A DNA stretch of 64,000 nt from positions 186,635-250,634 of the IMG/VR virus record IMGVR_UViG_3300031133_000383. One strand, written 5' to 3'. This document shows, one piece after another, positions 9,391 to 39,340 of this stretch. The notes under the pieces are model-generated. The model made no database searches, was not told where the DNA came from, and saw only the letters and a program-made list of their open reading frames with translations. Source of the DNA: a virus. Its lineage: Duplodnaviria > Heunggongvirae > Uroviricota > Caudoviricetes. The number at the start of each line of letters is the position of its first letter. The stretch's first letter is position 1. A program made the position numbers and the translations under genes.

Positions 9391-10446
9391 ATGTTTATTA
9401 TTCTTGGAGAATTTAAATTGATACACGCTTATGACTTAATCTTCTCCCACGTTAAATCATTCTATGACTTGGACAATCATACTCCAATTATCAAAACTGT
9501 GTCTAAACTTTACATTCTTGAAAGAACTGCAAGAGATTATACTTTTATCCAAGAACTTTTGGCACCTGCATGTAGTGAATCGAACATTTCGAAAATAAAA
9601 CAGATGTCTTCATTGTTTGATTTGCTTCACCATGTTGACTATGAATATTCAACAACGAAAAACTCAGAATTAAGAATTGAAGTTTATGAACATGGTATTG
9701 TACAAGTTTCATTTGGTAATATTCTTTATTTTTCAATTTCAAAAACCTCTAAAACCAATCCAGAGAATATGCTCTTTGCATCAAAAAAATCTTTCACAAT
9801 TGATAGCTTTATCAATGATGATATATTTGATAAAATTTACTCTGATAATTTAGATCATTTATCTAAATATGTTAATCCTGACATCACATTTAAATTATTT
9901 AATGAGATAGATAAAAAAACACTTGATGAAGTTAGAGTGGAGAACTTGGAAAATAAAGACATCATTTATTACAGTCTGGATAAAGAAAAATGCCTTTTTG
10001 ATGATTTTGAAGGCGATCATAATGAATTTTTTCATCCATTAAAAAAGATTTTTAGTAATAATCTTTTAAGCCAAGTTAAATCTATTGAAGCATTACTTCG
10101 TTTTGAATCTGACCTAAAATATGGAAAAATTGCTTACGAATTAGAATTCAATTATAGTCTATCTAAATATAAGTTTCGAACGCCCACTAATTTGTATGTA
10201 ATACTTTTTAATTATGATTACGAACTTGATTTAAGAACAACGCTTTATTTTAAATTTAAAAATAATGAAATAAGATATATTGAACTTGATCTTGGGTTTA
10301 ACGAAACAATCGATGTATCAGGATACGAAGCTATTTATGCTTATCTTCATAATCGCATAAAAGAGCTTATCGTTTCTAAATTAGGAATAACAGCGGAAGA
10401 TATTACAAATCAATCAATCTTACTTTATAAAATGTTATCAATTTAA
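9391..10446 (+). CDS. hypothetical protein (start uncertain: TTG at 9358 or ATG at 9391)
   Basis: 362-aa ORF in same operon as 8119-9309. Confidence 0.5.
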   Translation: MFIILGEFKLIHAYDLIFSHVKSFYDLDNHTPIIKTVSKLYILERTARDYTFIQELLAPACSESNISKIKQMSSLFDLLHHVDYEYSTTKNSELRIEVYEHGIVQVSFGNILYFSISKTSKTNPENMLFASKKSFTIDSFINDDIFDKIYSDNLDHLSKYVNPDITFKLFNEIDKKTLDEVRVENLENKDIIYYSLDKEKCLFDDFEGDHNEFFHPLKKIFSNNLLSQVKSIEALLRFESDLKYGKIAYELEFNYSLSKYKFRTPTNLYVILFNYDYELDLRTTLYFKFKNNEIRYIELDLGFNETIDVSGYEAIYAYLHNRIKELIVSKLGITAEDITNQSILLYKMLSI

Positions 10447-10652
10447 AATTATAGTTAACATAAAAAAATCCCTTTATAGGTATTTTTTCATAATTCATTT
10501 ATAAAAAAATTAAAATCTTTTCCTTGATAATCTATGTTATTCTTTCTATATAAATTCATTAAGAAAACTTAATTGGCTTTTTTTTCAATGTTATCTATTA
10601 TTAACAGACAGTATAGTGTATAATTGGTATATCATTCACAGGAAATCTCATT

Positions 10653-11090
10653 ATGTCTTCATCATTTATTGATAACGAAAAAAAACTAAGCAGCATGGCT
10701 GATGAATTGGGTTTAATCAAAGCCTTGTTCTTTACGCTTTCGGCTGTACTTTATTTTGTTTTGGACTATCATCTATTCAGATGCTTTTATTTGATTGCGA
10801 TGGTGTATCTTATAGGATCAAATATTTTTGTATATTTTTTAATGTTTAATTTCAAGTCTATTCCACAAAAGGCACAAGAAGCCATGTCTTCTGCTTGTGT
10901 CACATCTTCCAAATTAACGTTAAGTTTCTTTTCGTATTATATAATCATAGCGATTGGTATTTTTACACCTTTCTTCTTGGGAGGACAAGAGATTTCTAAA
11001 ACCGCTTCAATTGTATTATTTTTCTTGGAGCTTCTAGTTGTTGTAAAAATGTTTTCTATGTCTAAGAAAATAAAAAAAGAAGACTTTTAG
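10653..11090 (+). CDS. small integral membrane protein
   Basis: 145 aa, 3-4 hydrophobic helices, AGGAAA SD. Confidence 0.55.
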   Translation: MSSSFIDNEKKLSSMADELGLIKALFFTLSAVLYFVLDYHLFRCFYLIAMVYLIGSNIFVYFLMFNFKSIPQKAQEAMSSACVTSSKLTLSFFSYYIIIAIGIFTPFFLGGQEISKTASIVLFFLELLVVVKMFSMSKKIKKEDF

Positions 11091-12175
11091 TCTTCTTCTC
11101 TTTCAATTTCTAAACCATCATCCAAAAATTTTCCTCTGATTCTGCGATCTTTAATAAGATCTTCCTTTACCTCACCGATTCTGATTGGATAACGACTGTT
11201 TTTATCTACATTTGCTAGAATATGGTCCCATTCTTTTTTCTCATAATCGTAATGTTGAATAATAGAATCAAACGCACCCTCTGCTATTTTGATCTCTTTG
11301 ATATCTCCATTTTCTTCTTGTTCAACCTCATCTTCTTCGCCAACAACCGTCAATTTTGTTTTTTGATTGTTTTCTTGTTGGTCTATGTCATCATCACTGA
11401 TATCATCTAATTGTGCAATACTCTCCAATATTCTTTCTTTTGATATTGCAGCACACTGTGGTGAACTGTAAAAAAGTCCATGTACAAAAACAGATTCAAG
11501 TAATTCCAACACATCGAAACTGGTATCATTTTTTGTTTCGGCATAAATCATATAATCTTTTACATAAATACCGTCTACCGATTCATCTATAATGGGTTTG
11601 CATGTATCTATCTTAACTTTATGTACAATAAATGATGTTATTCTGTTAATAACAAGCGGTACATTTTTTATCTCATCAATAGAACAGTTTGACATTGAAT
11701 AGTTGCTGGCATCTCCATCTTTGTAACCACAAATATCCAACATGGAATCAATTTCGAAAGTGTTGAGCATTACGGGATCTTTGGGTGTATTCAACCAGTC
11801 AAAAAAATCAATATCATCAGGCTTTTCACCAAAATCTATGTCTCGTTGTACATACACAAGTTTTTTTATCTCAACTCTGTCAAAAACATTATCAACAACC
11901 TCAGCAGGCTTTCTGACAGCATCTACATAGGCTTTGACATTACGATCCACAATATCACCTGCAATTTCTGCCCATGGCTCAAGAGCCATAATAAATGAAC
12001 CCATTGTAGATCCCTTTTCTATCACGGCACTTTTACGAATGTTTTGAAGAAAACAACGTGAGGCTGATAACTCTTGTTGTTGTTGAATCAAAATTAAGGG
12101 AACACTGTTGTTCTCGTCTGAGCTAGATTTGAATCTTAGAATACCATCGTTACAAAAAATTAATTGACCATCCAT
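11087..12175 (-). CDS. hypothetical protein (acidic C-terminus)
   Basis: 362-aa ORF with GAGGTG SD. Confidence 0.6.
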   Translation of the reverse strand: MDGQLIFCNDGILRFKSSSDENNSVPLILIQQQQELSASRCFLQNIRKSAVIEKGSTMGSFIMALEPWAEIAGDIVDRNVKAYVDAVRKPAEVVDNVFDRVEIKKLVYVQRDIDFGEKPDDIDFFDWLNTPKDPVMLNTFEIDSMLDICGYKDGDASNYSMSNCSIDEIKNVPLVINRITSFIVHKVKIDTCKPIIDESVDGIYVKDYMIYAETKNDTSFDVLELLESVFVHGLFYSSPQCAAISKERILESIAQLDDISDDDIDQQENNQKTKLTVVGEEDEVEQEENGDIKEIKIAEGAFDSIIQHYDYEKKEWDHILANVDKNSRYPIRIGEVKEDLIKDRRIRGKFLDDGLEIEREED

Positions 12176-12306
12176 AATAGGTACACCTCATAAAGTTCGT
12201 CCATTGTATAGTATTTTTTTTATGTCGTCAACGTTAATTATTATTGCTGTTTTTTTTATATTATGCTATTATACACTTCAACCTGATGACACTAGAGGAC
12301 TCAATA

Positions 12307-12465
12307 ATGAAAAGTAGCCTGCAAGCAGATATGGAAGAATCGCAACTTTCTGATACCGATATTGACGATTTGGATTATGATGTCAAAGAAGCTCACTCTG
12401 CTTCAAAATGGGTAGAAGTTGAGGTTGTTTGTTCAGAATCGTTTAAATCAGCCAAGAATATTTAA
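12307..12465 (+). CDS. small acidic protein (52 aa)
   Basis: GAGGA SD then ATG at 12307. D/E-rich. Confidence 0.4.
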   Translation: MKSSLQADMEESQLSDTDIDDLDYDVKEAHSASKWVEVEVVCSESFKSAKNI

Positions 12466-12466
12466 C

Positions 12467-13174
12467 ATGATTGATTTAACACTTAATAAGATATTGAGAA
12501 TTGATAGTCTTAATATTCAAACCTACACGAATTCAAATAAATTTGAAGAGTTATTTGAATTTAATGAATTCTCGAATATTAAATGTTATGTTGATTATAC
12601 TCATTTTTTGGATTTATTGAAATCGAATAATTTTACAATATCAACACAAAAAAATGATTTTATTATTGCAGAAACAGCAGCATTCAAAATCAGATTTGTG
12701 TTGGGTGATTATTATTCATCTCATGATGAATCAAAAACTACGATTAAGCATGATGATAATGATACATTTTTTTTCATCAAAGATATCTGGTTCAAGGATA
12801 TCAATCATAAAATTTCACATATCCATTTCGATGAAAGAGTCCAAGTTGATGGTGTTTTTTTCAATAATGATAAAAGTCATAAAGCACTTCAGAGTATTCA
12901 GTATTACAAGGGGGCCAGTAATGCATTAAAACTAATTCAACATGAATACTACGATAATACTGCTCACGGATGCTATCTTTCTCATGTTCAGATGTGTGGT
13001 GTGATTGTCACAAATATTCATTATTCAATCGATGGTCGTCAACATAGCCTTTCACGTTTATTGGAAATTGTTGATAAAGAAGCAACAGTAGATCCCTTTA
13101 TGAAAAATTTTGAAGATCTTTTTGATATTTTTACTTTTGATGAAATTAAAATCCTAAAGATGTATAATTACTAA
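12467..13174 (+). CDS. hypothetical protein, C-terminal-tail family (…IKILKMYNY)
   Basis: ATG 1 nt after upstream stop (coupled). Family tail. Confidence 0.55.
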   Translation: MIDLTLNKILRIDSLNIQTYTNSNKFEELFEFNEFSNIKCYVDYTHFLDLLKSNNFTISTQKNDFIIAETAAFKIRFVLGDYYSSHDESKTTIKHDDNDTFFFIKDIWFKDINHKISHIHFDERVQVDGVFFNNDKSHKALQSIQYYKGASNALKLIQHEYYDNTAHGCYLSHVQMCGVIVTNIHYSIDGRQHSLSRLLEIVDKEATVDPFMKNFEDLFDIFTFDEIKILKMYNY

Positions 13175-13941
13175 CGAAAGAAGTCACCCATCAGATGAAT
13201 CTGCCTGTTGACCAGTTCAGGTTCATTTTTATAGGTAACTTTGTATTCAATCAGTTTGCTAATAATAAAATCATGAGCAATCTCTTTGTTGTCAAAAATA
13301 TACACGTCTTCATTATTATATTGATATATACCATCTTTTATTTCAAAATTTATGAATTTTTGCTGTATATCTAAGTTATTGAAAATATGCGTATGAATAT
13401 CGATTCTGTTTTCATTTACATGAATATTTAATGACTCCACAAAAGATCGATAATATTTTATAACTGGTTTATTTCTTAAATCAAAAAACAATATTGTGTC
13501 GTATTCTTTTAGTTTGCTATCAAATATTTTCACTTCGTCTTCTATATACTGAATTGTGATATGGCCTTTCTGAATATCATGATTTTGTTGTTCTGATTTT
13601 TTTAATATATCTTCATGCCATTTTATTTTTTGATTTTTTCTTTTATTGAACAAGTTCAATTCTGCAACAAAATAGTCTATTTTGCTGTATTTACTTAATT
13701 CTTCTGTATGATAATGATACATCATATTAAAATCATCACGACTCTTTTTTTGACAGTATAAAATTGCTTGATCCAGTGATTTAAAAATATTTTCTGCTTG
13801 TAGTTTGACTTGCCCTAAATTCTCTGTAATAACTACTGCTTGAAAACCTTCATAATTGGCTTCATACTGAACATTATAATAAGTGCCGTATTGATCAATA
13901 GCTTTATCTCTGCTAATTACAATGTAATTTTCATTTGTCAT
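13171..13941 (-). CDS. hypothetical protein
   Basis: 256-aa ORF, GAGGAAA SD. Confidence 0.55.
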   Translation of the reverse strand: MTNENYIVISRDKAIDQYGTYYNVQYEANYEGFQAVVITENLGQVKLQAENIFKSLDQAILYCQKKSRDDFNMMYHYHTEELSKYSKIDYFVAELNLFNKRKNQKIKWHEDILKKSEQQNHDIQKGHITIQYIEDEVKIFDSKLKEYDTILFFDLRNKPVIKYYRSFVESLNIHVNENRIDIHTHIFNNLDIQQKFINFEIKDGIYQYNNEDVYIFDNKEIAHDFIISKLIEYKVTYKNEPELVNRQIHLMGDFFR

Positions 13942-18468: not shown

Positions 18469-19332
18469 ATGGTAGATATAAAAGTAGAACATATTCAAGA
18501 GATCTTGCATAATTTAACTGAGTTATTATCAAGTGTTACCCCAATTACACATTTCAATATTGATACCAAAACACATTTCAATATCAATAACGAGAAAAAT
18601 TATAAAGGATCTTTATACAATGGCCAAGAACGTCTTTTCAATGTTACTATTGCAAATAAGATCGACATTTTTCCTTGCTTGAAAAAAGGCAATCGTTCAT
18701 TGTTTGCTAATAAAATTTCTCAACAGCTATGTACTTTATTTAATTTTGACGCTCCCGATGTTAACCATCTTATCTCTATTATCAAAAATAATATGGAGAT
18801 TTTTCAAAACAAGGGTTATTGGTGTTCAAAAAAAATGAGTCATTCTGATATAAACTATGTTGATGTATGGGAATCTATTAAATACTCTAATCCTCCCTAT
18901 GTCAAATTTAAAAGTCAGACAATATGTAGCAGCTTTTTATCTTCAACATTAAAAGTAAATAGACTACAATCTGTACAAGTTGATATAGCTTTATTAATTA
19001 TGCCAGATAAGCTTTTATCAATAAAACACTTTATAACGGCCAAGATACCTTTTGGTAATAATTGGTATAGCTGGTATTTATTCGAACCTCACCAGCCAGA
19101 TATTTTTTATTACCTCAGAGATATCAATGTGTCATTGAAGTATGAAGATATTTTAAAGGTTTCAACGAAAATATATAGACAAGACTTGGCAGAACACATG
19201 AAACAGGTTACGTACTCACGTATGGTGCCTATTATAAAAAAACTATCGGGAATGAAACAAGAAGATGCTAGAAATTTATCAAATGAAGATAAAGATAGAT
19301 TTTTAACGCTTCAGCATATGCAATCTATTTAA
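18469..19332 (+). CDS. hypothetical protein (…RFLTLQHMQSI, family-like tail)
   Basis: 287-aa ORF with TTGCTATAAT extended -10 upstream. Confidence 0.55.
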   Translation: MVDIKVEHIQEILHNLTELLSSVTPITHFNIDTKTHFNINNEKNYKGSLYNGQERLFNVTIANKIDIFPCLKKGNRSLFANKISQQLCTLFNFDAPDVNHLISIIKNNMEIFQNKGYWCSKKMSHSDINYVDVWESIKYSNPPYVKFKSQTICSSFLSSTLKVNRLQSVQVDIALLIMPDKLLSIKHFITAKIPFGNNWYSWYLFEPHQPDIFYYLRDINVSLKYEDILKVSTKIYRQDLAEHMKQVTYSRMVPIIKKLSGMKQEDARNLSNEDKDRFLTLQHMQSI

Positions 19333-19348
19333 AATTAGGAATATAATC

Positions 19349-19924
19349 ATGAAAGATAGAGAACCACAGTATTATCCTGTCACCACGCCTACACTAGAAT
19401 TGATAAAATCATGTTTTACAGATTGTGAATCTTTTAACAAATTGACTGATGAACAAATTCAACATCGTGATTGTTTACGAATTGACAAGATTGAATGTGA
19501 GCATACTGAAATTATATTTCAAAGTTTTTGGTTTTTTTGGTCAAGTAATCAGTATAACGAATATTTAAATAAGCTTTTGAATTTTCCTCATTTTCCAATT
19601 GAATCTTATGCCGAAAACATTGAACATATTTTAGGCATTGAAAAAGACAGTTTCAGTACATATGATGAATCATTCTATTTTGATAAAGATGGACAATTAA
19701 AGTTGTTAAAAAACTATCATTTTATTGATGCTTATGATGAATATTCCGACGAATCAAGTCTCTTATTTTATGAAGGAATGAATGACGATGATTGCAAAAA
19801 TATGATCAATGAATTCTATTTCGATAATTATATCTGTCATCTCAAACTACCTCCTGAGCTTTATAAACCTCTTAATCAATTAAGTTCCGATGAAATTGAA
19901 GTATTGAAAATGTATATTGCTTAG
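19349..19924 (+). CDS. C-terminal-tail family protein (…LSSDEIEVLKMYIA)
   Basis: AGGA SD. C-terminal 20 aa clearly paralogous to 19985-20551. Confidence 0.6.
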   Translation: MKDREPQYYPVTTPTLELIKSCFTDCESFNKLTDEQIQHRDCLRIDKIECEHTEIIFQSFWFFWSSNQYNEYLNKLLNFPHFPIESYAENIEHILGIEKDSFSTYDESFYFDKDGQLKLLKNYHFIDAYDEYSDESSLLFYEGMNDDDCKNMINEFYFDNYICHLKLPPELYKPLNQLSSDEIEVLKMYIA

Positions 19925-19984
19925 TAGCTATTATATTTTTTTTATGCTATAATCTAGCTTTCTAATTAAAGGATTTTTTCTATT

Positions 19985-20551
19985 ATGCTTATTACTCAAG
20001 AAATGTCACATGATATTATTTATAATTCTTTCCAAGATTTTTTTGCTGCAAATGGTTTGACTCTGAAAAGTTTTCGCTTGCAGTCTAATAATTTGGTATA
20101 TGAACAGACTTATGTAGATGGTGTGACATTGGATGAAGTTAATGCATTTAAAGTTAATCCTGCTCACCCTATGTATAAAAAATTTTTAGACCATCTTAAT
20201 TCAAATTATAATTTTGAACAGGTTCTGAAAAAAGAAATTGATGATTATGATAGCTTTTTCAATCTTGAAAATAAAGAAAAAGACTATTACAGGGAATCTT
20301 CATCTTTTATTATTGATGAAAACAGTAAAATTCGTAAAATAATTACTTTTGAGTTTATAGAACTTACCTATGGCGATGACCATATGCTGCTGGTCGAATT
20401 TGAGGGGGCACCCATGACAAACAATTATTCTAGACTTTTCAACTATTACACAGAATATTTTGTTAATAGTGATATTCCAGTTGAAATTTTTAGACCTCTC
20501 AATGAACTTTCTGCAGATGAGCGACATATATTGCGTATGATTTGTATTTAA
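19985..20551 (+). CDS. C-terminal-tail family protein (…LSADERHILRMICI)
   Basis: TGCTATAAT promoter, AAGGA SD. Confidence 0.6.
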   Translation: MLITQEMSHDIIYNSFQDFFAANGLTLKSFRLQSNNLVYEQTYVDGVTLDEVNAFKVNPAHPMYKKFLDHLNSNYNFEQVLKKEIDDYDSFFNLENKEKDYYRESSSFIIDENSKIRKIITFEFIELTYGDDHMLLVEFEGAPMTNNYSRLFNYYTEYFVNSDIPVEIFRPLNELSADERHILRMICI

Positions 20552-20664
20552 CTAGATTCATACCATTATAAGTAACCTGAACGATTTTGACGGTTTTACT
20601 ATTAAATATTTTATTGAAAAATTTTTTACTGCTGATGAAATTTGGATATACTTAGGAATTATTT

Positions 20665-21279
20665 ATGAAGCAAGCATTATCTTTATTTTTACAAGAAACT
20701 TTAAACAATTATGATTATCAATATTTTATTGAAGATAATGAAATTTATAGAATGCCATCGAATCAACATGGCAAGCCTTTAGATAATAACTATCAAATTA
20801 TAGGTGAATGTTTTGTTGATGAAACACATATCTATGATGAAGATGACATTTTTTATAAAAATACATTCCATTTTTATTCAAGTGCCAATAAAGAACATAA
20901 CACTATTATGCGTAATTCTGATAGCTCGGCGACTCGAAATTTATTTTTAGCTTTTGTTGATAATATGAAATTAATTTGCCCCTATGTTTTAGAAGAGCAA
21001 AAATATTCATTAACTTCTCAATATTTCAAATACTATAATGCATTTATTTTAAATAAAGATGACTTATACACGATAGCACTGCCTGTATTTTCTATTCAGA
21101 CCAAAGAAAAAAAGCTTCATTACGAGTTTACTGCTGATAAATTGCAGGATATCGACCAACAAGTAGATTTCATTCATAATCTATTTAAAACTCATTTTTT
21201 CAAAGATATTGTTGATAAAACTGTACCAGAGATGTCACAAGAAGAAAAAAATATAATTAGAATGTATTATTCAAATTAA
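20665..21279 (+). CDS. C-terminal-tail family protein (…MSQEEKNIIRMYYSN)
   Basis: AGGAA SD. Confidence 0.6.
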   Translation: MKQALSLFLQETLNNYDYQYFIEDNEIYRMPSNQHGKPLDNNYQIIGECFVDETHIYDEDDIFYKNTFHFYSSANKEHNTIMRNSDSSATRNLFLAFVDNMKLICPYVLEEQKYSLTSQYFKYYNAFILNKDDLYTIALPVFSIQTKEKKLHYEFTADKLQDIDQQVDFIHNLFKTHFFKDIVDKTVPEMSQEEKNIIRMYYSN

Positions 21280-21293
21280 TGTGAGGATCTTTA

Positions 21294-22163
21294 ATGTATT
21301 TTGTAAAAAAATTTAAACACATTTATTATCAAAAATTTAAAAAAATGGGATTTGATTTTAATAATCCCATCTGTCGGCAAGATAAAATAAATAATTATAT
21401 TGTTGATATATATGAATTTATCAATGAAGATGCAGAAGAGTATATTACAGTCAAAGATTTTTATACTTTTAATAATATAGATAATATGTTAATGCATAAT
21501 CATTATTTTGAAATCAATTTTGATAATGATAACACTATTGAATATAAACAAAAACGATTTTGCAGTATTCTCAAAAATTGCTTAGGTGTAGATACTGACG
21601 GTGTTGAACTCATTGTTAATTCATTTATTGATTCGCTTTGCACATTGGGCATTATCAAAAAGAATACAAACTACAAAGATTTCTCAATTACTCAAATTTT
21701 CGATGTGAATGATATAAATTTTAGTATTCATAATGAAAACACGATAGAAATTAAAAATATAGAATTCAATAAAGTTTTAGATGATATAGCCGTTTTATCA
21801 AAAGGAAATTTTAAAAATATAACACTTGAAAACTTTGCTATCAACTTCAATATTGTTTTTAAAATAAAATCAACAAACTCTCAGTGGAGTCTGGTTCCAT
21901 CTACGACATTTATTGTTCCATTATTGGATGACATCTGTTTTTTAACGCTTTTAGAAGATACTCATGGTAGCAAAAAACCTGTTATTAAAACAAATAACAA
22001 CTATTATTTAATTGAAGAAAATAAGGCCCCAATAGACCTTATTCAATCACTGGTTAACGTGAAATTTAACGAGTATTTCAAAAACCAAGAAATAGATTTA
22101 CATACACTTACCTATCGGCAACTATCTCAATTCATAGAAATAAATGAGATGTTGGACGACTGA
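21294..22163 (+). CDS. hypothetical protein (…FIEINEMLDD, family-like)
   Basis: GAGGA SD. 289 aa, Asn/Ile-rich. Confidence 0.55.
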   Translation: MYFVKKFKHIYYQKFKKMGFDFNNPICRQDKINNYIVDIYEFINEDAEEYITVKDFYTFNNIDNMLMHNHYFEINFDNDNTIEYKQKRFCSILKNCLGVDTDGVELIVNSFIDSLCTLGIIKKNTNYKDFSITQIFDVNDINFSIHNENTIEIKNIEFNKVLDDIAVLSKGNFKNITLENFAINFNIVFKIKSTNSQWSLVPSTTFIVPLLDDICFLTLLEDTHGSKKPVIKTNNNYYLIEENKAPIDLIQSLVNVKFNEYFKNQEIDLHTLTYRQLSQFIEINEMLDD

Positions 22164-22203: not shown

Positions 22204-23364
22204 TTATATTTTCTTGATTATTTTTTGATTGTTTTTATTTAATACATATTCCATCATTCCAGATTCAGCATATTTTTTACTTTCATTTTCGCCTACAACA
22301 ATAATATCAGGAATTCCTTTATTTTTCCAATTTCTTATTTTTTTTCCTAAAGATTCAGAACTTTCATCTAGCTTACATGATTTTTTATCAAATTTTGAAT
22401 GAAGTAGCTTTGCGTAGTCGGATGATTTTTCAGAAACGGGTATGATTACTGATTTTATTGGATGCAAAAAATCTGGTATATCTTTCCCAAAAGATTCCAA
22501 CAAAATACCAATCATTCTTTCTAGAGATCCAAGAACAGCATGATGCAATATAATAGGACGTTGCATTTTATTATCAGAATCAACATATTCAAGTCCAAAT
22601 CTTTCTGGTAATACATAGTCCAACTGTATAACACCCAATTGCCAAGAACGACCTAGTTTATCTTCCACCTGAAGCTCTAGTTTTGGACCATAAAAAGCCC
22701 CCTCTCCCGGCAATTCTTGAAAATCAAGGTTGTTCATGGCACAAGCTTCACGCAAGGCGGCTTCAGCCTTATCCCAAAGACTATCTTCACCAAACCTTTT
22801 TTCTGGTCTGAGAGCAATCGCATATTTTATTTTTTTGAATCCTAGTTCTTCATAGGCTTTCTTGCTCATATTGATATATTGATTAACTGAATTAATGAGA
22901 TTTTCTGGATTAACAAACACATGACTGTCATCCTGACAAAATTGTCGCTGTCTGAACAATACCTGCAAAGCTCCTGATGCTTCATTACGATACACTTCAC
23001 CAAATTCAAAAATGGGTAAAGGTAATTCTTTATAACTACGTTTTTCGGATTGATAAATTAAAATGTGATTTGGACAACTCATAGGACGCAGTGCATAATT
23101 ACTAGCTTCTGATGAATTCAAGAAAAACATGTTTTCTTTATATTTTTCCATATGGCCTGATTGTTCAAATAAATTAGCTACCACAATTGAAGGACTTTTA
23201 ACTTCAAGATAACCATTATCTTCATGATGTTTTCTAATAAAAGATTTTAGATTTTCATAAAGCTTTAATCCTTCTGGTTTCCAATAAACAACACCTGCAC
23301 TTTCACTTAACATGAAAAGATTCATTTCATTTGCCACTTGCATATATCTTTTTTCTTCATTCAT
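22204..23364 (-). CDS. thrS: threonyl-tRNA synthetase, catalytic + anticodon-binding core only (no N-terminal TGS/editing domains)
   Basis: RPMSCPNH (ThrRS motif), FRQRQFCQDDSHVF, LHHAVLGSLERMIGILLE. AGGAG SD 8 nt before ATG (MNEEKRY) at 23364. Upstream 105 nt of the ORF-finder frame lack an SD. Next upstream gene is on the other strand. Confidence 0.8.
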   Translation of the reverse strand: MNEEKRYMQVANEMNLFMLSESAGVVYWKPEGLKLYENLKSFIRKHHEDNGYLEVKSPSIVVANLFEQSGHMEKYKENMFFLNSSEASNYALRPMSCPNHILIYQSEKRSYKELPLPIFEFGEVYRNEASGALQVLFRQRQFCQDDSHVFVNPENLINSVNQYINMSKKAYEELGFKKIKYAIALRPEKRFGEDSLWDKAEAALREACAMNNLDFQELPGEGAFYGPKLELQVEDKLGRSWQLGVIQLDYVLPERFGLEYVDSDNKMQRPIILHHAVLGSLERMIGILLESFGKDIPDFLHPIKSVIIPVSEKSSDYAKLLHSKFDKKSCKLDESSESLGKKIRNWKNKGIPDIIVVGENESKKYAESGMMEYVLNKNNQKIIKKI

Positions 23365-23417
23365 TTTATTTCTCCTAGATAATTGATTATATTTTATTAA
23401 AATTAAGGCATAAAAAA

Positions 23418-23441
23418 ACCCAGCATTTAGCTGGGTTCTTG
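23418..23441 (-). terminator. hairpin cccagcatttagctggg with 7-T run on minus strand, upstream of thrS promoter
   Basis: Same hairpin family as 4392-4409/4642-4659. Confidence 0.45.
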
Positions 23442-23651
23442 GTGTGCAGGTATCAATTATTAACGACAATACCTCACCAGCCCAGCTTCGATCTGAGTTG
23501 TTGTGGTAGTTGTTGTATTCTTGACTATGTGCATTATATTTATCCTTTTTTACATTTTAATTTGAATTCTAAAATAAGTCAAGTGTTTTGAATGTATAGA
23601 GATCTCATTGATTTTAGTTTTTGATTTGTTAACCTATTAAAAGAACAGGAG

Positions 23652-24179
23652 ATGTATATGCCAGACAAACCACTACTTTGTTTTACTGAGTTTAATCCAG
23701 ATTTTATTCAAAAAGCTGATACAATTGTTAAAAAATATTGGTCTGGTGATTTTGATCCTGATCCTTATCAAGAAGGATTTATTGCTGTTCCAAATTTATT
23801 TTCATTTTATTTCTGTGCTGATGAAGGTTATAATAATTTAAAACCCGAAGTTATCTATAAGACTAGGTTTCCTTACTTATCCGAAGACGAAAATGAAGAC
23901 AATTTAGATTTTGATAGTTCAAAAATACATTGTGCTATTTTTTTTCAATGCTCCAATAATGTAAATGTTTCATTGGCTAATTTATTTGAAACTTTACTTC
24001 CAAACTACATCTTTGAAGTGGATGATGGAGCTTTTGTAGTGTCTCCTGATGAGAACCAGCATATTACTTTATTGGAAATTATGTCTTTGCTGACGGCAAG
24101 AGGCTTTATTTATGACAAAGAAAATTGTGACTTTAAAAAGTTTTTTAAAGATTTAGTGGTAATCAAAAGACCTGTATAA
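23652..24179 (+). CDS. hypothetical protein
   Basis: 175-aa ORF, ACAGGAGA SD. Confidence 0.55.
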   Translation: MYMPDKPLLCFTEFNPDFIQKADTIVKKYWSGDFDPDPYQEGFIAVPNLFSFYFCADEGYNNLKPEVIYKTRFPYLSEDENEDNLDFDSSKIHCAIFFQCSNNVNVSLANLFETLLPNYIFEVDDGAFVVSPDENQHITLLEIMSLLTARGFIYDKENCDFKKFFKDLVVIKRPV

Positions 24180-25010: not shown

Positions 25011-26108
25011 CTATTTGGCTTCTTTTAAATTGATCAACAATTCCATTGCTTGCTCTCGATGTTCAACAACAAAACTCTCATAGTCTTGAACAATGATTTT
25101 TAATTCATTGAGATAATCACGAATTGCTTCTTTTTCAAGCTCCGGCTTGAACTTTAACAATTGACTTCCACCAAAGAATTGTTTAACAACCTTACGCCTT
25201 TCAAGAACACTCCATGTTGCGGTTTCACTTTCTTTGAATAGAGGAAAGAGTTCATAGACCCTTTCTTTCCATTGAGCATTATTCAAAGGTGTCTTATTAT
25301 TGAAGTAGTGTTCAGCATTTTTGATTTCAATCCATTTCAGAAAACCATTATACGTAGGACGTTTACGATCTCGGGTTCTTTGTGTATGATTTCGATTTTC
25401 AAACGCATACAACTCTGGATTAAAGAATCTACTTGATGCCGCATACTCATAAACATCTTCCAGTGTATTAAAACCTTTGTGATAACGTTCAATATCATAA
25501 CCAAAGAAATCAAGAGCCAAATCCCAATCATTAGTGAGAACAATGCTTTCAAACAGATTGTCACCATCTCGAAACAAGAAACGCAGACCATCATGACCAT
25601 ATTTCAAGAAACCATTAGAGCTTGCAACAACACCCACTAGATTACCCAAATCATTCCAGTTCAAATAAGAAGAATGAAATTGATAATAATCACGCTCAGA
25701 TGCAATGAGATCAAGCTGAAAGTACACATCAGGCTCATCAGAAGGCAGTCCAATACTGATTACCATATCTTTCTTGTCTTTTGGTTTGTAAGGTAGATGG
25801 CCTTTATGCTCAAATTCAATACGAAGTAATTCCATCAGTTCTTGATAACTGACAAAATCGAAGAGTTCACCATCAACCAGCAAGTCAAGATCACCAAAGG
25901 TTTCCTTTTGACGATAAGCCTTTACTTCATGGGGAGCATCAATAATTTGAGCACCCATAGCATTGGCTTTTGAAATAGCAGCATTTAATACATTGACCAC
26001 TTTTGCAGTCAAACTATCAAAATCTTTTTTGTGAAGACGTTTAGATTGAACGCCAACTCGTTCAGGATTACTGTTCACAATTGCAAGAGCCAATGCATTA
26101 CCACCCAT
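25011..26108 (-). CDS. hypothetical protein (365 aa; weak FGDLDLLV nucleotidyltransferase-like motif)
   Basis: AAGGAG SD. Motif is weak and a G[GS] partner is absent. Confidence 0.6.
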   Translation of the reverse strand: MGGNALALAIVNSNPERVGVQSKRLHKKDFDSLTAKVVNVLNAAISKANAMGAQIIDAPHEVKAYRQKETFGDLDLLVDGELFDFVSYQELMELLRIEFEHKGHLPYKPKDKKDMVISIGLPSDEPDVYFQLDLIASERDYYQFHSSYLNWNDLGNLVGVVASSNGFLKYGHDGLRFLFRDGDNLFESIVLTNDWDLALDFFGYDIERYHKGFNTLEDVYEYAASSRFFNPELYAFENRNHTQRTRDRKRPTYNGFLKWIEIKNAEHYFNNKTPLNNAQWKERVYELFPLFKESETATWSVLERRKVVKQFFGGSQLLKFKPELEKEAIRDYLNELKIIVQDYESFVVEHREQAMELLINLKEAK

Positions 26109-27488: not shown

Positions 27489-28100
27489 ATGTTGATGAAA
27501 AAATTTGATAGAACATTAGCGAGTCGATATCCTGTAGAGGAAACAATCAATCTGAAAAATACACGCTCATGCCGTGGATCTTCTATTCGTTTCAAGTGGA
27601 ATAATATCTATATTGTTAAAAATAGTGGCTATACCGGATGGAATTTAACATTGGATGACATTATTGGTCAATATACTAAAAAAACATTCAATGATTACAT
27701 TTTTGATTTTATTGAGCAGTATAATAAATTTTCAAATTTTTTGAATCTTCCATATCAGTCTATTATCAATAAAATTATTAAGATAGAAGTTGTTTACAGT
27801 GGCAAGAGATTTACTGATTTTAAACGTCCATCCATGATTAAAGTGGAATGGGGCTATAGTTTTTTTCATATTATTCATTTTGATAATGATTATTCTTTTT
27901 ATGAACAATATCGAGGCGAAGATAGAAATAGAAAGGGTGAAGTCTATATTCATCACCCCATTGAAAGCACTTCACAAGCTTTTGTATTAATGTTGAAAAA
28001 CAGCCACGAATTAATTCCTGCCCAATATTGTGTTGATGCTGACAAATCTGAAATAGACTATGCTTCATTAGCAACTTTAGTTGAGATGATGAGTTATTAA
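27489..28100 (+). CDS. hypothetical protein
   Basis: 203-aa ORF. Confidence 0.5.
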   Translation: MLMKKFDRTLASRYPVEETINLKNTRSCRGSSIRFKWNNIYIVKNSGYTGWNLTLDDIIGQYTKKTFNDYIFDFIEQYNKFSNFLNLPYQSIINKIIKIEVVYSGKRFTDFKRPSMIKVEWGYSFFHIIHFDNDYSFYEQYRGEDRNRKGEVYIHHPIESTSQAFVLMLKNSHELIPAQYCVDADKSEIDYASLATLVEMMSY

Positions 28101-28247: not shown

Positions 28248-28326
28248 CGGAGTGTAGGTTAGCCCGGCTTATACCGCCTGCTTTGGGAGCAGGATGTCGC
28301 AGGTTCGAATCCTGCCACTCCGACCA
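28248..28326 (+). tRNA. tRNA-Pro (anticodon UGG), CCA encoded
   Basis: Acceptor cggagtg/cactccg. Anticodon stem cctgc/gcagg with loop tttggga. T-arm gcagg-ttcgaat-cctgc. Long D-loop. Confidence 0.75.
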
Positions 28327-28339
28327 ATTTAATAATAAT

Positions 28340-28417
28340 TGACAGGTAGCTCAGTGGGGAGAGCGGCTCCAAATTTTCGGGAGACGGTCGGGGGTTCAAA
28401 TCCTTCCTTGTCAACCA
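28340..28417 (+). tRNA. tRNA of uncertain identity with atypical (9-nt or mispaired) anticodon loop …cuccAAAUUUUCGggag…; Lys(UUU)-like?
   Basis: Acceptor tgacagg/cttgtca (U1-A72), U8, D-arm gctc-agtgggga-gagc, T-arm ggggg-ttcaaat-ccttc, CCA. Anticodon arm has 2 extra nt. Confidence 0.5.
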
Positions 28418-28426
28418 TCTTTATAT

Positions 28427-28514
28427 GGAAAAGTGGCAGAGCGGTTGAATGCAACGGTCTTGAAAACCGTCGGGTGTAAAAGCCTCGTGAGTTCGAATCT
28501 CACCTTTTCCGCCA
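28427..28514 (+). tRNA. tRNA-Ser (anticodon UGA), type II long variable arm, CCA encoded
   Basis: Acceptor ggaaaag/cttttcc. Anticodon stem acggt/accgt with loop cttgaaa. Variable arm cgggtgtaaaagcctcg. T-arm tgag-ttcgaat-ctca. Confidence 0.85.
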
Positions 28515-32562: not shown

Positions 32563-33303
32563 ATGCAGGACCTAATTTATAATATGTTAACCGCCATCAA
32601 TAAGAATCAACACTCTGAGAACCCTGTATCGATCCAACCTTTTTTCTTGAACATTCATAATTTAAGCCTTTTTAAAGTCGATCCTAGATGGTCTTTTAAT
32701 GATATATATAATAAAAATCATGACATCTATATAAACCATTTTAAAAGTCATTTTCATTATGCTTTTAATGGTTCTTCTAGTGAGATTCAGAAAGATCTTT
32801 TGAATTATTTATCATTTGATAATTCAATGATTAATCAAGTTGTAGATTATTTTGTCCAGACTTTTAAAAACAGTAATAAATGTCAAGATATAGAACTGGA
32901 TAATGATTTTCACTTTAAGGAATTTCAGATACTTCAAAATCATATTTCCGAAAAAATATATGGCTTTCATGATAATGCTGATTATTATGCTCGCAGAATA
33001 AAATTTGGAACTTACCTGAATAGTCATATTATTTTTCTTCAATATCTTTTTTTTGTCGAAAATGAAAATTTGAAAGTAAAAGCAAAAATTTGCTTTCCTA
33101 TTAGTGAAAACAATTGTTTTTCTGTGTTTATTTGTGAACCAAACGATATTAAATTAGCCTGTGAAATTATATTTGGTCATTTTTTAAATGATATGAGAAA
33201 ATTTTTATATGAAAAATATCCTCTGGAATGTGCTGACATTTTTGATGTTGACGATAATACTATAAAACTTTTTCTTGATCTCGTTAAAATGGATAATATT
33301 TAA
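32563..33303 (+). CDS. C-terminal-tail family protein (…IKLFLDLVKMDNI)
   Basis: AAGGA SD. Confidence 0.6.
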   Translation: MQDLIYNMLTAINKNQHSENPVSIQPFFLNIHNLSLFKVDPRWSFNDIYNKNHDIYINHFKSHFHYAFNGSSSEIQKDLLNYLSFDNSMINQVVDYFVQTFKNSNKCQDIELDNDFHFKEFQILQNHISEKIYGFHDNADYYARRIKFGTYLNSHIIFLQYLFFVENENLKVKAKICFPISENNCFSVFICEPNDIKLACEIIFGHFLNDMRKFLYEKYPLECADIFDVDDNTIKLFLDLVKMDNI

Positions 33304-33312
33304 GGTGACCCT

Positions 33313-34008
33313 ATGTTGAATTTAGAAAGCTTTGAGCCTATAGTTAATAGGATAAGACAATCTAAAAACACTCATGGAATAGAATCACTGGTATTTGGTA
33401 ACATTTCTGTTAATTTATCGTATTTAAAATTGGAAGATAATCGTATCAACGTTAGAATTGAAAAATTCAAACTGGATTTTGTTCAGCAATTATATAAACA
33501 GTTTGGTATTGATTTAAAAGATATAAATAAAATTGTTGATCTTTATTATCAAAGATGTATGGAAGCCAATATCATTCATCAGTTAGCCTTTAAACCAATT
33601 TTTGATATTGCTTCATTTTTCACTGCCTACAATGGATTGAAAAGTCACTTTCCATTGAAAGATAGAAATGTTATCAGTTACGAAAGTCATCTTTTCAAAA
33701 AGGAATTGCTTACTAAAAAAATCCCAATGGTGTTGGTGGATTTTTATTTAGATTTTTTTTCAAATAGTCCTGTACCTTACATTTTGATTACTTTACCATT
33801 GGCAAGAGAAGAAAAATTTCAAGTTAGGCTAACTGCTTTTGGTAATATTGATGAAATTGATAGTGTTATCAAACATCATCTAAGGATTCGTATGAAATCC
33901 TTACTTAATGGAGCAACACGCAATTATATAAGTAAGCAAGAATTCAAAATAAGTGATTTTGATTCGATGTGTCGGCATATGCAATTACGTGATATGATTA
34001 ACTATTGA
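33313..34008 (+). CDS. C-terminal-tail family protein (…CRHMQLRDMINY)
   Basis: AAGGTGA SD. Confidence 0.6.
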   Translation: MLNLESFEPIVNRIRQSKNTHGIESLVFGNISVNLSYLKLEDNRINVRIEKFKLDFVQQLYKQFGIDLKDINKIVDLYYQRCMEANIIHQLAFKPIFDIASFFTAYNGLKSHFPLKDRNVISYESHLFKKELLTKKIPMVLVDFYLDFFSNSPVPYILITLPLAREEKFQVRLTAFGNIDEIDSVIKHHLRIRMKSLLNGATRNYISKQEFKISDFDSMCRHMQLRDMINY

Positions 34009-34032
34009 GATTATTAAGGAGACATAGATTAG

Positions 34033-34785
34033 ATGTATAATGTTATCAAACCAGATTTTTATGAATTTATGTCTTTTATGAATCAACATCTACCTTTGGC
34101 AAAACAAAAAGATACTCATATCTTTGGGTATACTAAATATTTTTTTGAAATTACAGATGGTTTTGAAGTAAAAGTAGATGCTTCCATTTTGAATCTCAAA
34201 TTGGATAATAATTTCGCTAAACTTGTCTACAATTATTTTAATTTTGATTTCAAAGAAGTTGTCTCCATCATAGAATCTTATCATAAACATTTTACTGATT
34301 ATGGTTTGATAGATAACAAAAATCTAAATGAAATCCTCAATAATTGTTTTTTGACAGAGGATGAACGTATATTTTTTAGTGATATTAATCTTTATTCATA
34401 CAATACACGATGTGTAACCTTTAATAATTTAATAGTTGAAGTTCAAGTAACACACGATGCTTGCAAAGAAATGAAAATAAGAACTGTTATTTATTTTCCT
34501 GTTATGGATATTTCCTATATCAGTGTGACTGTTGACAAGACTATTAGCCAACCACCTATTGTTAAAGTAAGCAAAGTATTAAAAAGTCAGTCAATCAAAA
34601 GAACTCGAAATGCTCATTCTATTATTTCTAATTATTCATCTATAGATACTTATATGGAAAATATAGCGTTTTCAAGAGCAAAAAATATTATCAATCTGCG
34701 ATTGGGAATAAATAAACGAATAATAAAAAAAGATCCATTGGTTGTTCAAGATTATTTCAAATTATGTGAAATGATCAATATTTAA
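34033..34785 (+). CDS. C-terminal-tail family protein (…YFKLCEMINI)
   Basis: AAGGAG SD. Confidence 0.6.
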   Translation: MYNVIKPDFYEFMSFMNQHLPLAKQKDTHIFGYTKYFFEITDGFEVKVDASILNLKLDNNFAKLVYNYFNFDFKEVVSIIESYHKHFTDYGLIDNKNLNEILNNCFLTEDERIFFSDINLYSYNTRCVTFNNLIVEVQVTHDACKEMKIRTVIYFPVMDISYISVTVDKTISQPPIVKVSKVLKSQSIKRTRNAHSIISNYSSIDTYMENIAFSRAKNIINLRLGINKRIIKKDPLVVQDYFKLCEMINI

Positions 34786-36031: not shown

Positions 36032-36047
36032 AACAATAATGATATAT

Positions 36048-37322
36048 ATGAAAAAGTTTAAATTTTTACCATTGATATTGATTATACATACAGTAAGTTA
36101 TGCTGACTACACTGTTATCTATCCACTTACAAATGCCTCTATAACTATATCACAAAAACCGCCTAGTTATACTGATTGGGTTTCTGTCGGCAGCCCCTAT
36201 AATTGTGCATCCGCAAGTCCTATGGAAAATACAATTAATGAAGGTATTTCATATACCAAAAATTTTACTAATTGTGACCAAAACCAAGAAAGAAAAAAGA
36301 CGATAGGGTCAGTTGTCACTAATGAACAGCGTACCGTTTCTGGTATCAATTATCAAACTCAAAGTGTAGGTACAAAAAAATATATCCCAACCTATACTGA
36401 TTGGGTAAATGTGGATAATGCTTATAACTGTGCTTCTGCGACTCCTATGGAAAACACTGTCAATGAAGGCGTTGCTTATACAAAAACATTTAGTGATTGC
36501 AGTCAAAATCAAGAAAGAACAAAGACACTAAACTCCGTGGTTACCATAGAACAACGTACTGTTTCTGGCATCACTTATCAATCTCAAAGTGTAGGTACAA
36601 AAAAATCTGTTCCTACCTATACTGATTGGACCAACGTTGGTGGAGCTTATAATTGTAATCAAAATCCTAAAGAAGACACTATTGATGAAGGAGTGAGTTA
36701 CACAAAAACTTTTAGTGAATGTAGTCAAGATCAGGAAAGAACAAAAACATTAGATTCCACAGTTTCTGTAGAAAAACGCACTATTCCAGCACCTAGTTAT
36801 CAAACCCAAAGTGTTGGAACAAAAGTAGCTGTTGCAACTTATACAGAATGGGCAAAATCAGGAACTCCATACAATTGCAAAAATATTGGACCTATGGAAG
36901 ATACATTTAATGAAGGAACAGTGTTTACAAAAAATTACAATGATTGCAGTCAGGATTACACTCGAACTAAGACATATAAAGGTGTCAACACAACTGAGAG
37001 TCAAACGTTACAGGGATTTAATTATTCTGTTCAAAGCGTAGGTACACGATCAGTAACAGAATGTGCTCCTTATGCGACTAACAATAATTATCGTTGGATT
37101 GACGTTGCCAAACAACAGCTTGGTACACCTAATTATAAATATGAATTATGGTGGAATGGCAAAGCATTGGCTTTCTTAACAGATAAACCTGTTACCACTG
37201 CAGCGGATAAAACTTTTACCACAGGTGGTTATGTGTATAGTCGTGGAGAATATAAAGAAAGTACAGTAAGAAATAGCGATTATAAATACTTCTATTATCA
37301 AGTGTGTAGAAAACCTGTCTAA
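36048..37322 (+). CDS. secreted repeat-module protein (4 x ~77-aa Cys-pair modules + conserved C-terminal domain)
   Basis: Signal peptide …HTVSYA|DYTVIYPL. Modules YTDWVxVGxPYNCASxSPMENTxNEGxxYTKTFxxCSQNQERTKT…RTVSGIxYQxQSVGTK x4. C-terminus YKYFYYQVCRKPV. Confidence 0.75.
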   Translation: MKKFKFLPLILIIHTVSYADYTVIYPLTNASITISQKPPSYTDWVSVGSPYNCASASPMENTINEGISYTKNFTNCDQNQERKKTIGSVVTNEQRTVSGINYQTQSVGTKKYIPTYTDWVNVDNAYNCASATPMENTVNEGVAYTKTFSDCSQNQERTKTLNSVVTIEQRTVSGITYQSQSVGTKKSVPTYTDWTNVGGAYNCNQNPKEDTIDEGVSYTKTFSECSQDQERTKTLDSTVSVEKRTIPAPSYQTQSVGTKVAVATYTEWAKSGTPYNCKNIGPMEDTFNEGTVFTKNYNDCSQDYTRTKTYKGVNTTESQTLQGFNYSVQSVGTRSVTECAPYATNNNYRWIDVAKQQLGTPNYKYELWWNGKALAFLTDKPVTTAADKTFTTGGYVYSRGEYKESTVRNSDYKYFYYQVCRKPV

Positions 37323-37330
37323 CTTAAAAA

Positions 37331-37360
37331 ACACTCTTTTTCGAAAGGGTGTTTTTTTAT
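37331..37360 (+). terminator. rho-independent terminator acactctttttcgaaagggtgt + T7
   Basis: Seen directly. Confidence 0.7.
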
Positions 37361-37385
37361 AAACGTCTATTATTCAATAAAAATT

Positions 37386-37416
37386 TTGACATTATAATTA
37401 TTTTTGATATTATAAT
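37386..37416 (+). promoter_or_regulatory. sigma70 promoter TTGACA…TGATATTATAAT; near-identical copy at 38344-38376
   Basis: Duplicated promoter cassette preceding paralogs. Confidence 0.55.
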
Positions 37417-37439
37417 GTTAATACAACAATAAATATATT

Positions 37440-38273: not shown

Positions 38274-38282
38274 CTTATAATA

Positions 38283-38310
38283 AAAAGCACATTGTGGGAT
38301 ATGCTTTTTT
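38283..38310 (+). terminator. rho-independent terminator agcacattgtgggatatgct + T6
   Basis: Seen directly. Confidence 0.6.
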
Positions 38311-38398
38311 ATTAATTATTATTTCTATTATTCAATAATTTATTTTGACATCATATTAATTTTTGATATTATAATATTAATACAATAATAAATATATT

Positions 38399-39232: not shown

Positions 39233-39340
39233 TTTTTATCAATAAATAATAATAAATGTTAAGTATTATATTAAATATTTTGATATTGTAGAACTTGGTG
39301 GTATTATAATAATAGAACAATAATTATATATTTAACCTCT

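Follow-up and report, generated by a model that had tools for sequence, protein, structure and literature searches.

A core-only threonyl-tRNA synthetase gene behind a predicted threonine-codon attenuator, probably on the chromosome of an uncultured AT-rich bacterium

The stretch of DNA analysed here, 64,000 nucleotides (nt) long and called the window throughout, carries on its minus strand a gene, thrS, for a threonyl-tRNA synthetase (ThrRS) that is reduced to its catalytic and anticodon-binding core. The gene and the parts of its product were placed as follows.

22204..23364, minus strand: thrS, core-only threonyl-tRNA synthetase, 386 amino acids (aa) plus stop (open reading frame (ORF) translation, Pfam, TIGR00418, PDB alignment, AlphaFold2 (AF2) model)
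ATG at 23364 and stop codon at 22206-22204, minus strand: start and stop of thrS, read from the sequence
23372..23376, minus strand: Shine-Dalgarno (SD) motif AGGAG of thrS, 7 nt upstream of the ATG
22492..23115, minus strand: class II catalytic domain, aa 84-291 (Pfam PF00587; zinc ligands C97, H148 and H274; motif 2 R126, motif 3 R283)
22207..22452, minus strand: HGTP-type anticodon-binding domain, aa 305-386 (Pfam PF03129), ending after the last beta-strand

The gene at 22204-23364 is assigned as a threonine--tRNA ligase (class IIa, EC 6.1.1.3) by the TIGR00418 threshold and by motifs 1-3. The score against TIGR00418, the NCBIfam thrS equivalog, was 400.4 bits for a cut-off of 383.65, with only profile positions 175-536 of 565 matched. 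Just two Pfam domains were found in the product, tRNA-synt_2b at aa 84-291 (E 1.8e-43) and HGTP_anticodon at aa 305-363 (E 3e-11), the latter restricted to positions 2-65 of the 94 in the PF03129 profile. In a phmmer search of the PDB, residues 7-362 aligned to residues 244-601 of the Escherichia coli enzyme (1qf6, E 1e-87), and from these boundaries the protein starts at the linker between the N2 and catalytic domains (about residue 244 in E. coli), as in the engineered deltaN enzyme. A preliminary description of this DNA had recognized a catalytic and anticodon-binding core without TGS or editing domains, and had proposed to fix the truncation point by alignment; Pfam, TIGR00418 and the search for the N-terminal module described below agree with it, and the alignment supplies the point. 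The motifs RPMSCPNH, QDDSHVF and HHAVLGSLERMIG on which it relied are all in the translation, the AGGAG motif it named lies at 23376-23372, 7 nt from the ATG, and the neighbouring upstream gene (23652-24179) is on the other, plus, strand as it said. The ORF that it gave is real and lies on the minus strand; its length of 387 aa included the stop codon and is corrected here to 386.

To look for the missing N-terminal module, a hidden Markov model (HMM) covering TGS and N2 was built from 75 full-length bacterial ThrRS. It gave E-values of 1e-110 and 1e-89 on positive controls and no match when all six frames of the window and of nine related loci were searched (best E 2.2), so that the frameshifted N-terminal domains that could have overturned the preliminary claim, that they are not encoded adjacently, were not seen. 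The in-frame open stretch upstream of thrS extends for 35 codons, to a TTG at 23469; it is free of domains and occupied by a terminator hairpin. These are the 105 nt of open frame in which the preliminary description saw no SD.

The truncated form is not confined to the window. More than 120 clusters (90% level) of proteins 57-100% identical to the window ThrRS are 376-409 aa long and share a common start point. Among GTDB species genomes, all 80 homologues in the matches listed (37-44% identity) are full length (633-848 aa) with the N-terminal module present. The ratio of nonsynonymous to synonymous substitution rates (dN/dS) was 0.034 (dN 0.013, dS 0.38) for the genes of loci L086 and L090, the sole pair unsaturated at synonymous sites, and at most 0.29 for the saturated pairs.

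The active site is complete. With an enterobacterial ThrRS of 642 aa as reference (E. coli numbering), C334/H385/H511 of the zinc triad corresponded to C97/H148/H274 of the window enzyme, and R363, E365, R375, Q381, D383, Y462, K465, Q479, Q484, S517 and R520 were also conserved. There is no variation across 21 family members in the zinc ligands, the motif 2 and motif 3 arginines and most other ligands, including D146, Y225, K228, Q242 and Q247 of the threonine-binding site, and Q139 is at least 90% conserved. The AF2 model, computed with the family alignment as input, reached a pLDDT of 89.4 and a pTM of 0.88, with a pLDDT above 87 in the anticodon domain, and superposes on deltaN E. coli ThrRS (1evk), Salmonella ThrRS and yeast MST1 (4eo4) with TM scores of 0.90-0.92. 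The anticodon-binding domain retains E361, the counterpart of E. coli E600. In the alignment its C-terminal helix of about 20 aa is missing, and the last strands of the model are residues 372-377 and 380-385.

These data bear on the question of whether thrS is a damaged gene, that is, a frameshifted, split or pseudogenised copy, or one whose ThrRS-like product no longer serves translation. Such an origin would fit a protein about 250 aa below the size of bacterial ThrRS, with 35 open codons before its ATG and an anticodon-binding domain trimmed at the C-terminus as well. It does not fit the identical boundaries in the more than 120 clusters, which come from independent assemblies, nor the failure to find a remnant of the N-terminal domains in any frame of the window or the nine related loci, the purifying selection on thrS and the retention of every catalytic residue and of the anticodon-domain fold. 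The open stretch upstream is moreover part of a conserved, noncoding attenuator, and regulation through threonine codons, set out below, links the gene to the charging of tRNAThr. Artefact or decay is already contradicted by the evidence in hand, and we regard it as extremely improbable.

All elements of the thrS leader lie within a 287-nt divergent intergenic region, on the strand of thrS.

23554..23582, minus strand: sigma-70-like promoter, TTGACT, 17-nt spacer, TAAAAT (10 of 12 consensus positions; predicted by consensus alone)
23543..23547, minus strand: SD motif AAGGA of the leader ORF, read from the sequence
23460..23534, minus strand: leader peptide ORF MHIVKNTTTTTTTQIEAGLVRYCR, 24 codons (own SD; homologous ORFs in relatives)
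23496-23516, minus strand: seven consecutive Thr codons in the leader ORF, read from the sequence
23475..23487, minus strand: region 2, AGCUGGGCUGGUG, pairing with the Thr-codon stretch (1:2) or with region 3 (antiterminator)
23429-23444, minus strand: region 3, pairing with region 2 or forming the 5' arm of the terminator
23412..23440, minus strand: intrinsic terminator (3:4), 11-bp hairpin AAGAACCCAGC-UAAAU-GCUGGGUUUUU followed by a U tract (folding, -16.1 kcal/mol)

Taken together, the region upstream of thrS has the anatomy of a classical ribosome-mediated attenuator, whose function is predicted. Threonine-codon control of thrS would be independent evidence that its product serves the charging of tRNAThr. 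This attenuator overlapped the open frame that the preliminary description had set aside for want of an SD, and was missed there. When folded without constraint, the leader forms the pairing of the Thr-codon stretch with region 2 (1:2) together with the terminator (3:4). The alternative 2:3 duplex has a computed energy of -20.4 kcal/mol against -16.1 for the terminator, a value reached by 3 of 300 shuffles of the window leader. Among seven leaders tested, the 2:3 duplex was at least as stable as the terminator in six, and its energy was reached by at most 3 of 300 shuffles in six (L253: 18 of 300).

The same layout precedes thrS in L084, L086, L090, L091, L252 (59% GC), L253 and the sister locus L257, and is thus conserved over a range of 22% to 59% GC. 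All eight leaders, including that of the window, hold 3-8 consecutive Thr codons and a terminator hairpin with a T-run, and in all eight a 7-mer lying 8-15 nt past the last Thr codon pairs at 6-7 of its 7 positions with the 5' arm of the terminator. Regions 2, 3 and 4 read GCUGGG, CCCAGC and GCUGGG in the AT-rich members, and are altered jointly, still pairing, in L252, L253 and L257. This covariation was read from folds of the single sequences and an explicit table of the arms, as the MAFFT alignment of the leaders misplaces region 2 and L252. AAGG- or GGAG-type motifs precede the leader ORFs of L084, L086, L090 and L091, and TTGACT or TTGAC-like boxes stand at the equivalent place in L084 and L091.

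Searches with known RNA families gave little. The Rfam model Thr_leader (RF00506) matched 23414-23530 on the minus strand below threshold (16.3 bits, E 1.5, gathering score 55). No T-box was found in the window at the gathering threshold or in 23300-23700 at E<=10, and a T-box or other known riboswitch upstream of thrS was rejected, no Rfam match there reaching its threshold. A match to "freshwater-2" upstream of thrS (28.4 bits against 49.9) was also rejected, as it reduces to a hairpin and an SD. A simple terminator scan of the region did not list the thrS terminator, because part of its U tract is paired.

Leaders with cognate codons were not found before SerRS, TyrRS and LigA of the window, the GluRS gene of L090 or the ArgRS gene of L091. 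Upstream of TyrRS, at 56220-56415 on the plus strand, there is a promoter-like TTGACC...TATACT and a 15-codon ORF at 56285-56332, MKATFHFQKSFTVRY, with a weak hairpin and T-run between this ORF and tyrS; the ORF is not rich in Tyr codons, and a cognate-codon attenuator is not obvious there from the sequence.

Attenuation of thrS by a leader peptide appears to exist beyond the truncated family. The full-length thrS genes of seven Vogesella species have an analogous MFKRTTTTRISR leader and terminator, which suggests that the device is not unique to the truncated enzyme. In these Betaproteobacteria (L015, L019, L021, L022, L025, L034 and L042) the order is a tRNA gene, a leader ORF of the MFKRTTTTRISR type, a strong terminator and thrS, the leader lying about 120-290 nt 5' of thrS, near position 9287. 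Leaders of the form MTPRTTTTPTRV, similar to those of Vogesella, were seen in the metagenome loci L183 and L192. No description of a leader-peptide attenuator of thrS was found in the searchable literature, which is an incomplete body.

We next consider what kind of replicon carries the gene. The window has about 31% GC, and SD-like motifs precede 32 of its 66 ORFs against a background of 5%. The 604,313-bp contig of the window ThrRS also carries dnaK, about 2 kb past the left end of the window. The closest named DnaK proteins are from Pseudomonas and Azotobacter (73%), and relatives at 79-85% are encoded on contigs of 1,851,360 bp and 1,539,155 bp that also bear members of the ThrRS family (P0006 and P0015). 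In L086 a distance of 8 kb separates a ThrRS 70% identical to that of the window from the primary sigma factor (group 1 RpoD, 557 aa); the contig, of uniformly 22.7% GC, also holds RecX, RNase HII, PilB and an S41 protease. The sigma factor recurs, at 99% identity, on a 1,042,066-bp contig bearing the ThrRS P0031. The closest named RpoD proteins are gammaproteobacterial (38-45%), and a related RpoD is surrounded by DnaE, ExoI, DsbC, PilB, prepilin peptidase, ParC/ParE-like topoisomerases, RuvB and TopA. The tetranucleotide similarity of the window to L254 is compatible with a common source and not decisive. Scans of GTDB and of metagenomes with generic ThrRS patterns listed matches of 37-44% identity and are uninformative on the presence or absence of the lineage. 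We conclude that the window is most probably chromosomal DNA. Its source, an uncultured AT-rich bacterium whose replicons measure about 1.0-1.9 Mb, is probably a host-associated gammaproteobacterium.

Other sources were considered. The window could belong to a huge phage or a giant extrachromosomal element that takes over translation with its own synthetases and tRNAs, thrS then being an auxiliary gene. About 85% of the roughly 110 genes around the window are without a Pfam match, and the 64 kb hold Thr, Ser and Tyr synthetases, three tRNAs, an NAD-ligase and a PNKP-like phosphatase. In the Xanthomonas jumbo phages XacN1 and Xoo-sp13 there is a hypothetical protein with 45% identity to a 778-aa ORF of the window, and a Pol-beta-like ORF matches jumbo and huge phages. 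The ThrRS genes of huge phages are, in addition, core-only in every case: in IMG/VR, 14 of 14 ThrRS on contigs of 289-578 kb have this form (386-435 aa, at most 45 open codons upstream), as do several on contigs of 99-149 kb, and the full-length ThrRS in that database, mainly of 642 aa, lie mostly at the edges of small prophage contigs. The 14 loci are L094, L105, L112, L135, L140, L150, L156, L157, L162, L163 and L168-L171, with ThrRS from position 10001. Core-only ThrRS is not mentioned, and "threonyl" does not occur, in the accessible portion of the huge-phage paper (PMC7162821).

Against a phage stand the DnaK gene on the contig of the window ThrRS and the presence in the lineage of the 557-aa group 1 RpoD, DnaE, ExoI, topoisomerases, RuvB, type IV pilus genes and DsbA/DsbC. 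At 1.0-1.9 Mb the related contigs are longer than any phage genome reported, the largest being of 841 kb (bioRxiv 10.1101/2025.01.14.633092). The window ThrRS family was not found in a complete scan of the 2.9 million viral contigs of IMG/VR, no PHROG structural match was found among the ten largest window ORFs scanned, and a Thr-codon leader was not found upstream of the core-only ThrRS genes of huge phages. A huge-phage origin, considered for the density of ORFans and the two jumbo-phage-like proteins, was rejected because DnaK, RpoD, DnaE and topoisomerases are on the same or sibling contigs and because of the absence from IMG/VR; we judge a phage or mobile-element source very unlikely. The 778-aa and Pol-beta-like ORFs are phage-like genes within a bacterial chromosome. 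The former (4883-7219, minus strand) also matches phrog_33734 and, in part, NCBIfam RING_SCO0854; among the matches of the latter, a 365-aa nucleotidyltransferase (25011-26108, minus strand), are phage genomes of 636 kb and 735 kb. A giant eukaryotic virus was rejected in view of the SD motifs before about half of the ORFs, the bacterial-type synthetase and the sigma-70 factor, and an affiliation with Dependentiae (TM6) for its lack of literature support and because DnaK and RpoD point to Gammaproteobacteria. The preliminary description had left the choice between a phage or mobile-element copy and a highly reduced genome. Our results favour a small AT-rich bacterial genome over the former, and "highly reduced" overstates the case because the contigs of relatives reach 1.0-1.9 Mb.

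On these grounds we favour, with moderate confidence, the view that thrS encodes a functional, core-only and attenuator-controlled ThrRS of an uncultured AT-rich bacterium, in which we take it to be the working and probably the only ThrRS. The conserved active site and the Thr-codon attenuator indirectly support charging of tRNAThr by the 386-aa protein.

The alternative that carries the most weight is a genome with a full-length thrS in addition. The core-only gene would then act as a back-up or as an inhibitor-insensitive paralogue, and the attenuator would switch it on only when the charging of tRNAThr collapses. It can be likened to thrZ of Bacillus subtilis and to antibiotic-resistant synthetase paralogues; in B. 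subtilis thrS and thrZ are both under T-box control. The attenuator does tie expression to poor charging of tRNAThr, the GC-rich relatives lie in surroundings that resemble mobile elements, and synteny around thrS is variable. About 32 of the best 150 among 1.84 billion representatives worldwide are core-only. In a rough neighbour-joining (NJ) tree, suggestive at such distances, the window family is monophyletic and is set apart, with five successive core-only sister groups, from ordinary bacterial ThrRS. Among GTDB species genomes, all 80 homologues in the matches listed (37-44% identity) are full length (633-848 aa) with the N-terminal module present.

Other data argue for a sole enzyme. To our knowledge, genomes of 1-1.9 Mb rarely keep duplicate synthetases, and the constraint on the gene is very strong (dN/dS of 0.034, above). 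ThrRS is 70% identical between two sub-lineages of which the primary sigma factors are 50% identical, a comparison in which the assignment of RpoD is tentative, as the 50% RpoD was placed in the lineage of the window only by near-equal contig sizes (604,209 and 604,313 bp) and compatible composition. The N-module HMM detected no second, full-length ThrRS and no N-terminal domain in about 220 kb of lineage DNA. Finally, the leader does not mark a back-up gene, because the full-length housekeeping thrS of Vogesella bears the same type. We consider an accessory copy unlikely, and still the most serious of the alternatives.

Several points weigh against the reading of thrS as a working and sole ThrRS. 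The position of E. coli R609 is not conserved in the window enzyme, and this together with the missing C-terminal helix could affect tRNA binding, as judged from the alignment. Minimum free energy folding of the whole leader prefers the antiterminator in just two cases, L086 and, if the stall is placed later, L091, so that the case for the antiterminator rests on duplex energies, shuffles and covariation among few independent lineages. The search for a second thrS or a trans-editing factor covered only the 220 kb of the lineage given above. The attenuator is not diagnostic, since a back-up synthetase would share such regulation. Gene order around thrS is poorly conserved within the family, and L252 (58% identity, 59% GC) and its sister L257 (57% GC) adjoin AcrVA2-like, SprT-like, AbiEii and PilS/Hint genes. 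From this context and the Thr-codon leader retained in it, the core-only thrS cassette may move horizontally together with its attenuator.

If thrS is the working enzyme, a mechanism can be proposed. The core would activate threonine at the zinc site and charge tRNAThr like the engineered E. coli deltaN enzyme; without N2, Ser-tRNAThr would not be deacylated in cis. Dock-Bregeon and colleagues reportedly observed in 2000 that deltaN ThrRS no longer clears Ser-tRNAThr. Fidelity would then depend on discrimination in the active site, and possibly on hydrolysis of Ser-AMP before transfer, in the manner of MST1; failing that, the cell would have to bear Thr-to-Ser exchange. In this lineage Ser-for-Thr errors may be tolerated or otherwise corrected. 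When charged tRNAThr is scarce, the ribosome would stall on the seven Thr codons and free region 2, which would pair with region 3 as antiterminator and let transcription enter thrS. When it is ample, the ribosome would reach the stop codon of the leader, the 3:4 terminator would form and transcription would end. When bacterial ThrRS is deprived of its N-terminal module, activation of threonine stays normal and tRNA is charged somewhat less efficiently (PMC4267643). MST1, which has no editing domain, performs pre-transfer editing and still forms Ser-tRNAThr in vitro, so that compensation is partial (PMC4267643), and E. coli copes well with the loss of ThrRS editing (PMC10057733).

Further features of the window and of related loci were recorded. 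Full-length SerRS (427 aa, 44106-45389) and TyrRS (419 aa, 56416-57675) are encoded on the plus strand in the same 64 kb as thrS. A cluster of tRNA-Pro(UGG), tRNA-Lys(UUU) and tRNA-Ser(UGA) at 28248-28514 (plus strand) coincides with the minimum of the cumulative GC skew at about 26-28 kb; nearly all genes to the right of the cluster are on the plus strand, and the region may therefore be that of a replication origin. About 25 of the 60 ORFs of at least 120 aa are 190-360 aa long, have no Pfam match and share a motif at the C-terminal end, approximately h-x-L-x-E/K-M-I/Y-x-I/Y. They lie at 1404-3000, 7370-13174, 18469-22163, 27489-28100, 32563-34785, 40496-44057 and 45379-49533. From their sequences these ORFs represent a massive expansion of paralogues, and the shared motif may mark effector-like proteins for secretion or targeting.

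At 36039-40198 (plus strand) there are four tandem paralogues of 427, 277, 277 and 285 aa, without a Pfam match, with N-termini like signal peptides (M..FKLLPL...SYADYTVIYPL), a conserved C-terminus (YFYY..CRKP[IV]) and internal repeats of the form YT[DE]W...Y.C....P.E.T..EG..[YF]TK.[FY]..C.Q...R.KT. In L253 a 797-aa fusion of kinase, phosphoesterase and T4-Rnl1-like ligase is encoded directly downstream of thrS (11196-13589), and at 8077-9309 the window encodes a protein of 410 aa that has a HAD phosphatase domain of the PNKP type. By their predicted domains, RNA-repair-type genes accompany thrS in this lineage.

Bacterial ThrRS is described as having, universally, an N2 editing domain that removes Ser-tRNAThr (PMC4267643). 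In the accessible literature just two cases of full loss of N2 are characterized, that of yeast mitochondria and that of Crenarchaea, where a separate editor exists. By that literature, it appears to be new that a large bacterial family has naturally lost the whole module, in combination with a Thr-codon attenuator and with a parallel in huge phages; this suggests that loss of the proofreading half of ThrRS is a recurrent and viable state. The attenuator offers a directly testable mechanism along with independent genomic evidence of amino-acid specificity, and compact natural ThrRS scaffolds of 386 aa may be useful for synthetase engineering. Should the lineage have no ThrRS but the core-only one, it offers a natural setting in which to ask how much Thr-to-Ser mistranslation cells bear, whether a catalytic core alone can be tuned to accuracy, and how regulation is rebuilt without the domain needed for translational autoregulation of the E. 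coli type.

More tentatively, with chances that we would put somewhat below even, there may be a clade of uncultured AT-rich gammaproteobacteria in which core-only ThrRS is the single enzyme and no trans-editing factor exists. Among natural bacterial lineages it would then be the first whose whole proteome is translated without any post-transfer proofreading of Ser-tRNAThr, and the attenuator that sets the synthetase supply would read charged tRNAThr irrespective of whether it is loaded with Thr or Ser. From the truncation in every huge-phage ThrRS it would also follow that reduced or parasitic replicators can in general do without the N-terminal module.

Among the closest counterparts of the window ThrRS is the laboratory deltaN-ThrRS of E. 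coli (residues 242-642; 1EVK/1EVL), with which it shares the boundary, the two domains and the zinc triad (TM 0.90, 38% identity). The window protein, however, is natural and under selection, and additionally lacks the C-terminal helix. Yeast MST1 (3UGQ, 4EO4) is likewise a natural core with a tRNA-binding domain and no editing domain (TM 0.90-0.92) and serves as mechanistic model of pre-transfer editing in an enzyme lacking N2 (PMC4267643), but is mitochondrial and eukaryotic and serves a proteome of 13 proteins, whereas the window enzyme would serve that of a whole bacterium. In the PDB search the window ThrRS matched bacterial ThrRS at E 1e-94 and MST1 at E 3e-64, and the truncation is taken to be independent of that of MST1 because the latter match is far weaker. 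In the ThrRS-cat/ThrRS-ed system of Crenarchaea thrS is shortened and the synthetase is without an editing domain (PMC7373986); unlike the window enzyme it is of archaeal type (Aeropyrum ThrRS-1 matches at E 1.7e-49) and is accompanied by a separate editor protein. For the window lineage, HMM and Pfam tables gave no free-standing Ser-tRNAThr deacylase of the N2-like or DTD-like kind in the window, its flanks and eight related loci, about 220 kb of the genome. Host-dependent bacteria with small genomes, such as Mycoplasma, lose synthetase proofreading (PMC10057733, PMC7373986). The host-restricted cases covered by the accessible parts of these sources involve point-mutated or degenerate editing sites or a deletion of LeuRS CP1, whereas here TGS and N2 are absent as a whole. 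The ThrRS of huge phages, among them the 636-kb phage LR756504 that holds a match to the window ThrRS, are core-only like that of the window, yet are 36-45% identical to it, lie on viral contigs and stand apart in the NJ tree.

The regulation of thrS also differs between systems. That of E. coli is controlled by a translational operator, with repression requiring the N-terminal domain of ThrS, and that of Bacillus by a T-box. The leader of the window resembles instead those of the E. coli thr operon (RF00506) and of pheST, which likewise combine an ORF of cognate codons, 1:2, 2:3 and 3:4 alternatives and an intrinsic terminator. Unlike the thr operon leader it controls thrS; in pheST, too, the regulated gene is a synthetase.

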